64,000 nt of DNA from Candidatus Micrarchaeota archaeon (GCA_030648615.1 JAUSHJ010000071.1:830-64829); one strand, 5' to 3'; shown: positions 27,287-27,386, numbered from the stretch's first letter. The notes: a model not told the origin generated them from the sequence alone. A program made the numbers and translations.

Positions 27287-27386
27287 TGCAGGGATGGCGG
27301 TCCGATTGAACAGCTGTTCAATTCCCGCCAAGTTGTTTCACAACTCGAGTCCCTTTCATTCATTACACTCATTGCAGGGATGGCGG
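27287..27386 (+). repeat. 14-bp direct repeat of the tRNA 5' end flanking a hairpin cassette
   Basis: TGCAGGGATGGCGG at 27287-27300 and 27373-27386; between them ATTGAAC-AGCT-GTTCAAT and AGTTG-TTTCA-CAACT. Confidence 0.8.

Follow-up and report, generated by a model that had tools for sequence, protein, structure and literature searches.

A copied tRNA 5' end and hairpin cassette before tRNA-Leu(CAG) is one of a family of such units in Micrarchaeia

We analyzed a window of DNA (the whole 64,000-nucleotide stretch, with positions counted from its first letter) from a Candidatus Micrarchaeota archaeon whose assembly comprises 1.65 Mb in 76 contigs and is ~90% complete. The relatives of the proteins encoded in the window all come from Micrarchaeota (DPANN) MAGs, including Bilamarchaeaceae and LFW-283_2. 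Downstream of genes for an NTP-transferase and a DUF460 protein lies a tRNA-Leu(CAG) gene, which spans 27374-27618, does not encode CCA, and is opened by the second of two copies of a short direct repeat; the unit that begins with the first copy and precedes the gene is referred to here as the cassette (Table 1). The unedited gene was missed by both ARAGORN and Rfam because its T loop holds an insert of ~161 nt. When this insert was removed in silico, ARAGORN called tRNA-Leu(cag), 82-86 nt long, with every junction near 27443/27604, and a BHB scan, for which this intron served as the positive control, placed the 5' splice site after 27443 and the 3' splice site after 27604. The first-pass annotation had assigned a tRNA-Leu to the second copy of the repeat, and the ARAGORN call shows that gene to be genuine. 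For the whole genome, ARAGORN reported 7 tRNAs and the Rfam tRNA cut-off was passed by 8; from these few we conclude that the tRNA genes of this genome are heavily interrupted.

Table 1. Features of the cassette and of the tRNA-Leu(CAG) gene in the window
Feature	Position	Strand	Basis and remarks
AT-rich TATA-like box AATAACTTTTAGATT	27265-27279	+	Read from the sequence; presumed promoter of the whole unit
Stub GCAGGGATGGCGG, exact copy of tRNA-Leu nt 1-13	27288-27300	+	Exact repeat search
UCC bulge (27301-27303), hairpin 1 (GAUUGAACAG/CUGUUCAAUU, 27304-27323), unpaired C (27324)	27301-27324	+	Inverted repeat I11; fold
CCGCC, complement of stub nt 9-13, closes the long arm	27325-27329	+	Fold
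Hairpin 2, AGUUGU-UUC-ACAACU, 6 bp	27331-27345	+	Fold
GUCCCU, complement of stub nt 3-8, mimic of the tRNA 3' acceptor strand	27349-27354	+	Fold
Spacer, 19 nt, cassette to tRNA	27355-27373	+	3' part (27362-27373, ATTACACTCATT) like the pre-stub sequence 27277-27287
tRNA-Leu(CAG) exon 1	27374-27443	+	Second copy at 27374-27386; ARAGORN call after removal of the T-loop insert
T-loop intron, ~161 nt, stacked hairpins	27444-27604	+	BHB scan, ARAGORN; junction ambiguous by 1-2 nt
tRNA-Leu exon 2	27605-27618	+	T-stem 3' strand, acceptor 3' strand UCCCUGC, discriminator A at 27618

An exact search of the window found the 14-mer TGCAGGGATGGCGG at 27287-27300 and 27373-27386, an offset of 86 nt, just as had been annotated, and no further copy even at two or fewer mismatches; the chance expectation was 0.11 matches, and at least two matches arose in 2 of 100 shuffles. 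The tRNA-derived share of the repeat is 13 nt (G1 to G13, 27288-27300), and the T at position -1 (27287) is an extra that is specific to the window. By eye, a weaker likeness extends further upstream, between ATTACGTTCA-T (27277-27287) and ATTACACTCATT, and a 15-mer similar to the AT-rich box recurs at 27632-27646 (repeat D3). The 72 nt between the repeats hold no gene, the only ORFs being chance ones that overlap the tRNA. The minimum free energy (MFE) fold of 27288-27360 is a three-way, tRNA-like junction (-27.5 kcal/mol, z = -4.3), and none of 200 shuffles was as stable. Both of the hairpins annotated between the copies are real, the first (10 bp) as an inverted repeat and the second in this fold, in which GTCCCT pairs with AGGGAT of the first copy, so that the mini tRNA-like fold that had been proposed is the one obtained. 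In relatives, the acceptor mimic often extends to a complete 7-nt complement with an A after it, in the place of the discriminator, and a related spacer motif, TTCRYTNCRYTCAT, recurs in many of them.

A search against Rfam 15 returned no match at the gathering score in the window and none at E <= 1 in 27150-27750. Three candidate assignments for the fold were rejected. A K-turn at the UCC bulge fails on inspection of the 3' strand, which is missing the tandem G·A/A·G signature; a hammerhead or other small ribozyme at the three-way junction is at odds with junction strands of 1, 3, and 4 nt that hold no conserved cores, and with the Rfam search; and a true minimal tRNA with its anticodon in hairpin 1 does not fit loops that are 3-6 nt long and variable.

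A BLAST search of 40 relatives detected the stub-plus-hairpins unit before tRNA-Leu in three genomes (G020, G010, and G031), the last of which belongs to another family. A covariance model (R1) built from four cassettes matched 38 of 176 genomes in the order, representing 15 of 48 genera and 5 families, and, in an even draw from the class, 25 of 401 genomes, 2 of these outside the order; G205, which lies outside the order, has the full architecture including the spacer motif. In 43 of the 49 loci that we read, the stub equals, at 13 of 13 positions, the first 13 nt of a tRNA 53-166 nt downstream, and these 43 loci represent 16 different 13-mers. The host tRNAs are Leu (CAG, UAG, CAA, GAG, UAA), Ser (UGA, CGA), and Cys (GCA), which have UGGCRG at nt 8-13 in common. 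Several states of the unit are seen. Hairpin 2 is missing in some variants (L066, L084, and L088), which have a longer complement (to nt 5-13 or to nearly the whole stub); L065 and L067 are exact tandem doublets; G009, G122, and other genomes hold two to three cassettes with near-identical hairpins; and the stub is damaged in L056, L061, L078, L085, L087, and L092, by a 1-nt deletion in L061 and L085 and by divergence of the 5' half in L087 and L092. We conclude that the cassette in the window is a member of a lineage-specific family in Micrarchaeia, found at Leu, Ser, and Cys tRNA genes with UGGCRG, at sites that are filled, empty, or occupied in tandem. The complete cassette is single-copy in its own genome, and thus no source element is visible there; the other Leu tRNA genes of this genome have none, and a genome-wide scan for repeat/inverted-copy/repeat units returned this locus and two or three weak candidates (C33:7628, C45:17926).

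Some loci among the R1 matches are organized differently. In L091 (G092:C29) and L050 (G138:C20), a single tRNA is preceded by a stack of two or three stub-hairpin units that differ from one another, and the leader of L091 also holds a longer partial tRNA copy, GAGTAGCGAAGCGGTCAAA. At L086 (G154:C88:32770-32849, at a contig end), the matched unit is built on a protein gene's start: after AAAATTATGGCGA come TCC, a TTGAAC hairpin, and CTCGCCATAAT, the complement of AAAATTATGGCGA, and the ribosome-binding site and ATG are repeated 70 nt downstream, where the second copy is incomplete since the contig ends.

The behavior of the cassette as DNA was followed in genus g19, in the same family as the window genome, where every genome compared has its tRNA-Leu(GAG) gene on the downstream side of the same Lys/Glu-rich gene. 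Here, the site is filled in G091, G095, G102, G110, G117, G104, G118, and G086 and empty in G101, G105, G097, G098, G100, and G111. G095 and G101 align over ~35 nt of upstream flank and over the tRNA and differ by exactly 86 nt, with the flank adjoining the stub in G095 and the tRNA in G101; likewise, the AT-rich flank is kept in relatives, next to the stub in filled sites and next to the tRNA in empty ones. Because filled and empty alleles are separated by 86 nt in this way, the behavior of the cassette at the DNA level is that of an insertion with target duplication, and we note that a precise deletion between the repeats would yield the same empty site, so that gain and loss are indistinguishable. 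On its right side, the duplication ends variably, at nt 13, 14, 15, 16, or 17, and duplications are 12-17 nt long, with 28 and 48 nt in some loci (48 nt in G086). G091 and G096 carry an additional, different stub-hairpin-complement unit upstream. Variable edges, stacked units, and empty sites together indicate that units have been created, stacked, duplicated, and lost at this site.

The relatives also show that the cassette follows its tRNA. In G138 (genus g4), the gene order is that of the window (NTP-transferase, DUF460, cassette, tRNA-Leu(CAG)), and two positions of the tRNA, nt 7 and 12, differ from the tRNA of the window; the corresponding changes are seen in the stub, in the acceptor mimic, and in the complement of nt 9-13. 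The three cassettes of G009 have near-identical hairpins, and each stub and acceptor mimic nevertheless fits its own tRNA perfectly (5' ends GCAAGAG, GCAAGAG..CAG, and GCACAGG). In G125, an A3-to-U change in the tRNA is followed by the stub and not by the mimic; the repeat there runs 15 nt further upstream, which suggests a recent re-duplication of the unit. From these sequence comparisons, we conclude that the cassette is old and co-evolving rather than recent. The mirrored substitutions and the matches of each cassette to its own tRNA require selection or a homogenizing process, for a one-off target duplication is insufficient: plain target-site duplication does not explain internal complements that match the local tRNA. 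We infer that an efficient homogenizing process keeps the stub identical to the tRNA.

These results divide what had been annotated as an insertion whose 14-bp duplication regenerated an intact tRNA 5' end. Insertion with duplication stands, given the filled and empty alleles in g19, and in the relatives compared the duplication is present together with hairpins, not unchanged with the hairpins missing from between the copies. The duplicated tRNA sequence is 13 rather than 14 nt, the internal complements are left unexplained, and a single recent event does not agree with a cassette that occurs in 38 of 176 genomes and shows mirrored substitutions at a syntenic locus.

The features expected of a transposable element that were found are an exact flanking repeat, here of 13 nt, and the filled and empty sites among relatives. 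Terminal inverted repeats were looked for by reading the insert ends, TCCGATTG... and ...CACTCATT, which are not inverted repeats of each other, and no fixed duplication length was found. Two candidate enzymes were considered. The genome encodes one Y1_Tnp gene (C47:14377-14727), and across the order 12 of 38 genomes with the cassette have a Y1 transposase vs 29 of 138 genomes without it, which, in a set of incomplete MAGs, is no clear association. Casposon integration, which yields a 14-15-bp duplication, was rejected, as no Cas1 was found in the window's own genome, which is ~90% complete. Site-specific recombination is a further possibility, in which the cassette would be a footprint with an attL/attR-type duplication, either of a shrunken integrase-driven element or of a tiny non-autonomous element whose folded strand would mimic the duplex target. 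Integration into archaeal tRNA genes classically leaves a partial tRNA copy beside the insert, the UGGCRG site has received insertions repeatedly, tandem units exist, and the stub/complement duplex with its conserved asymmetric bulge presumably resembles folded att sites such as integron attC and CTX phage attP. However, the 72-nt insert holds no integrase or other gene between the repeats, the duplication ranges from 13 to 48 nt where a fixed crossover core would be expected, and an element bringing its own core would have to copy its target to match 16 different local 13-mers. We therefore consider a recombination footprint improbable. Overall, we conclude that none of the known classes of mobile element accounts for a conserved, co-evolving cassette with matched internal complements.

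How the transcript would mature bears on a different proposal, namely that the 86 nt are a second intron, in the D arm (at 13/14 or within the repeat), that a broad-specificity splicing endonuclease would cut so that the stub becomes the mature 5' end. The lineage is rich in non-canonical introns (only 8 tRNAs pass the Rfam cut-off in this genome), the promoter-like box lies upstream of the stub, and an epsilon2 endonuclease of broad specificity is published for Micrarchaeum (PMC3239211). A relaxed BHB can even be drawn in the window between UGCA at 27287 and UGCA at 27373, which removes exactly 86 nt. This helix has a 4-nt bulge and is specific to the window, and the BHB scan found nothing else for the 86-nt unit. 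Because both strands of such a helix are the same positions of the repeat, excising one repeat period needs a self-complementary 4-mer; UGCA is the only one in U-GCAGGGAUGGCGG, and it requires U at position -1 of both copies, yet in 27 of 49 loci the two copies are preceded by different bases, and the shared base is C in several others. Further evidence against a splice comes from junctions that shift among nt 13-17, from tandem double cassettes, for which two such introns would be required, and from the damaged stubs of L061, L085, L087, and L092, where the second copy must be used. Moreover, the second copy and the sequence downstream make up a complete tRNA-Leu apart from the T-loop intron, so that removal of the 86 nt is not required. 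The second D-arm intron, which the first-pass annotation had listed as an alternative, is thus disfavored, because no BHB motif is conserved in the relatives, and we regard it as very improbable.

RNase P offers another route. An RNase P RNA was found in the genome (C29:22203-22411, minus strand; 58.9 bits, E = 4.6e-16) and aligned end to end, with a score below the Rfam gathering score of 84. RNase P RNA was found in 17 of the 21 genomes searched and scored below the cut-off in 10 of the 17, which suggests a reduced or interrupted RNase P RNA in the lineage. As RNase P RNA is present, splicing of the 86 nt would be superfluous, and maturation would most simply proceed by cleavage at the second copy; the alternative in the first-pass annotation of a tRNA-like leader processed by RNase P is compatible with this. 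A separate promoter for the second copy was considered and rejected, as we read no TATA-like or AT-rich box between the stub or cassette and the tRNA. The stub is a predicted competitor for the 3' strand of the tRNA: in the modeled precursor with the intron removed, the conformer in which the stub is bound to the 3' end has a predicted energy of -65.4 kcal/mol vs -61.6 kcal/mol for the productive conformer, which pairs the second copy with the 3' end, and in the predicted fold of the whole precursor region the stub is likewise paired with the tRNA 3' end.

Pairing statistics were taken from an alignment of 33 cassettes that was fitted to the model, a procedure that inflates pairing. In this alignment, 95.9% of cells were paired and 18 of 23 pairs were altered on both sides, compared with pairing of only 32-45% in slid controls. 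Among 31 distinct sequences, helix 1 (the acceptor mimic) was 87.9% paired, with all 5 of its pairs changed on both sides, helix 2 (the 9-13 complement) 98.7%, helix 3 (hairpin 1) 98.1%, with double-sided change in 6 of 7 pairs, and helix 4 (hairpin 2) 97.9%, with double-sided change in 5 of 6 pairs. Position 12 is G-C in 20 of these sequences and A-U in the other 11, with no mismatch and no G·U intermediate in that set. Helices 2-4 are 97-99% Watson-Crick, non-standard cells comprise 16 G·U vs 12 A·C (11 vs 9 in the acceptor mimic alone), giving no RNA-strand bias, and no loop or junction nucleotide is conserved across the order. Such nearly pure Watson-Crick stems, with G·U about as frequent as A·C, favor DNA palindromes over a selected RNA. 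The pattern is suggestive of palindromes in which one arm serves as the template for the other or as the reference for its correction, or of complements that were perfect at first and decay symmetrically, and is unlike stepwise compensatory evolution of RNA.

The alternative is that the cassette is a functional RNA under selection, a tRNA-like 5' leader whose stub can exchange with the true 5' strand in a two-state precursor. Such a leader would signal processing, assist folding or quality control, regulate the maturation of tRNA-Leu/Ser/Cys, or serve as a stable mini-tRNA decoy. The extent of pairing and of double-sided change relative to the slid controls is in keeping with this, as are an architecture kept over 5 families and into other orders, the joint variation of stub, both complements, and tRNA at the syntenic locus, the discriminator A that often follows the acceptor mimic, and the two predicted conformers, which are near in energy, together with the pairing of stub and 3' end in the whole-precursor fold. 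Short direct repeats should also delete easily, so that their long persistence hints at retention. Against selection stand the inflation of pairing in a model-fitted alignment, G·U pairs that are not in excess of A·C in stems that are almost all Watson-Crick, unlike typical selected helices, and loops and junctions without a nucleotide conserved across the order. The distribution is also patchy, with 138 of 176 genomes devoid of the cassette, empty sites in congeners, and no cassette at the other Leu tRNAs of the same genome; stubs have decayed (L061, L085, L087, and L092), the junction varies between nt 13 and 17, and a similar unit occurs at the start of a protein gene (L086). We think a selected RNA rather unlikely on this evidence.

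Our preferred reading, in which we place modest confidence, is that the cassette is a non-essential piece of DNA that sits between the promoter and the body of tRNA-Leu(CAG) and whose transcript is a leader removed by RNase P. It would have arisen by insertion with duplication at the DNA level, giving a unit that we read in the order stub (nt 1-13), hairpin 1, 9-13 complement, hairpin 2, 3-8 complement, spacer, and intact tRNA; the tRNA after the cassette being intact, the gene is still functional. A single transcript would begin ahead of the stub, which the internal complements would sequester co-transcriptionally in the tRNA-like three-way junction. RNase P would then cut at G1 of the second copy to give the normal 5' end, and the splicing endonuclease would take out the T-loop intron in a separate reaction. 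Processes acting on DNA would keep the stems and the stub/complement pairs perfect: the direct repeats may undergo slippage or unequal exchange, and the arms of the palindromes may correct or template one another; selection on RNA structure is less likely to be what keeps the stems perfect.

A bolder interpretation, which we put forward tentatively and consider to be probably wrong as it stands, is that the cassette is either a two-state RNA device or the cis-element of an undescribed process in Micrarchaeia that acts at UGGCRG|AG of tRNA genes and at similar sites and duplicates the gene end there, adding a hairpin and the same end in inverted orientation. Such a process could work by fold-back (snap-back) template switching or through an att site of folded single-stranded DNA that imitates the duplex target, and recombination between the copies would then keep the product identical to the live gene. 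If this is true, the same process, at work within tRNA bodies, would give rise to archaeal tRNA introns at any place where a BHB is able to form, and one such place would be the self-complementary T-loop UUCGAA, the site of the tRNA-Leu(CAG) intron.

We found no description in the literature of a stub-hairpin-complement unit before tRNA genes in DPANN archaea, and the cassette resembles several known systems in part. In Haloferax, a tRNA-like structure precedes 5S rRNA. By analogy with such tRNA-like precursor elements, the tRNA-like leader fold of the cassette could be recognized by RNase P or tRNase Z; unlike them, its acceptor arm copies that of the downstream tRNA and tracks its substitutions. 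Like MITE, REP, and REPIN elements, the cassette modules are short, non-coding, and dispersed, with near-perfect stems and presence/absence polymorphism. However, REPINs are mobilized by RAYT Y1 transposases, to which the cassette has no clear link, and the cassette lacks terminal inverted repeats, is single-copy in this genome, and has a long, variable duplication (13-48 nt) that starts at the gene end. As in archaeal tRNA-integrating elements (Caldiarchaeum, PMC3293823; pNOB8/SSV-type), a 5' tRNA fragment lies upstream and the insert restores the gene end; in Caldiarchaeum subterraneum, a 1.8-kb element that encodes a recombinase separates a 5' fragment of tRNA-Thr from the gene downstream (Sugahara et al. 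2012, PMC3293823). Integration of this kind has been proposed as a route to tRNA gene disruption. The cassette differs in that its 72-nt insert has no gene, its complements match the local tRNA, its duplication is variable, and it is conserved and co-evolves across families. Finally, like the transposed BHB introns of Thermoproteales and the non-canonical introns of Micrarchaeum (ARMAN) (PMC3239211; reviews PMC4090602 and PMC4033280), the cassette is a hairpin-rich insert in a tRNA gene. Unlike BHB introns, it has no conserved BHB at its boundaries, and, as it lies at the 5' end and is removable by RNase P, splicing is not required.

The cassette touches on how archaeal tRNA genes become interrupted, split, or intron-laden, a question on which a 2026 preprint that surveys the tRNA introns of Asgard archaea reports that it could identify no arrival route of general validity. 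Here, a small insert spares the tRNA gene because the 5' end is rebuilt, and relatives offer examples of filled, empty, tandem, and decayed loci, which gives a sequence-level view of the arrival of an insert. The identity of stub and tRNA over 16 sequences, together with the matched complements, is explained by no described mechanism of transposition or integration. In practice, standard finders overlook tRNA genes that carry cassettes and introns of this kind, as in this ~90% complete genome with its 7 ARAGORN tRNAs.

Short hairpin modules are dispersed in the window's own genome, in intergenic DNA, in leaders, and in the T-loop intron of tRNA-Leu(CAG), which holds a module with copies elsewhere in the genome; TTGAAC..GTTCAA hairpins alone occur at 15 sites, and the same hairpin family builds both the cassette-type hairpins and this intron. 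Arrays of 3-5 abutting perfect hairpins (ACAAGCTTGTYG.., CGCAATTGTCGAGCGCGACAATGCG, ATTGTTCGAAACATCGAACAAT ..) were seen at many loci of the genome, e.g. C41:42300-42400, C65:22040-22120, C36:820-900, and C46:7950-8060, of which at least one (C41) appears to lie within coding sequence, between short direct repeats GGCCA. The DUF460 gene directly upstream of the cassette starts in a region with the hairpin TTGTCAGCAGGGCAGAAAAATGCTGACAA (window 26600-26720). At C4:2880-3010, the hairpin TTGAACTGCGGTTCAA lies just beyond the 3' end of a minus-strand tRNA and is followed by GCGGAAGGCG, a near copy of the tRNA 3' end GGCGGAGGCG, an arrangement that looks like a mirrored 5' cassette. The T-loop intron is itself bracketed by an imperfect 10-nt direct repeat (D6; GGCTACGCAA at 27427-27436 and GGCTACGAAA at 27594-27603), such that the intron resembles, at its 3' end, a degenerate version of the last part of exon 1. 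CGAA of the intron is paired to UUCG of the exon in the BHB helix, the T-loop hexamer UUCGAA being self-complementary, and this self-complementarity could be the exact condition that lets an insertion with duplication become spliceable.
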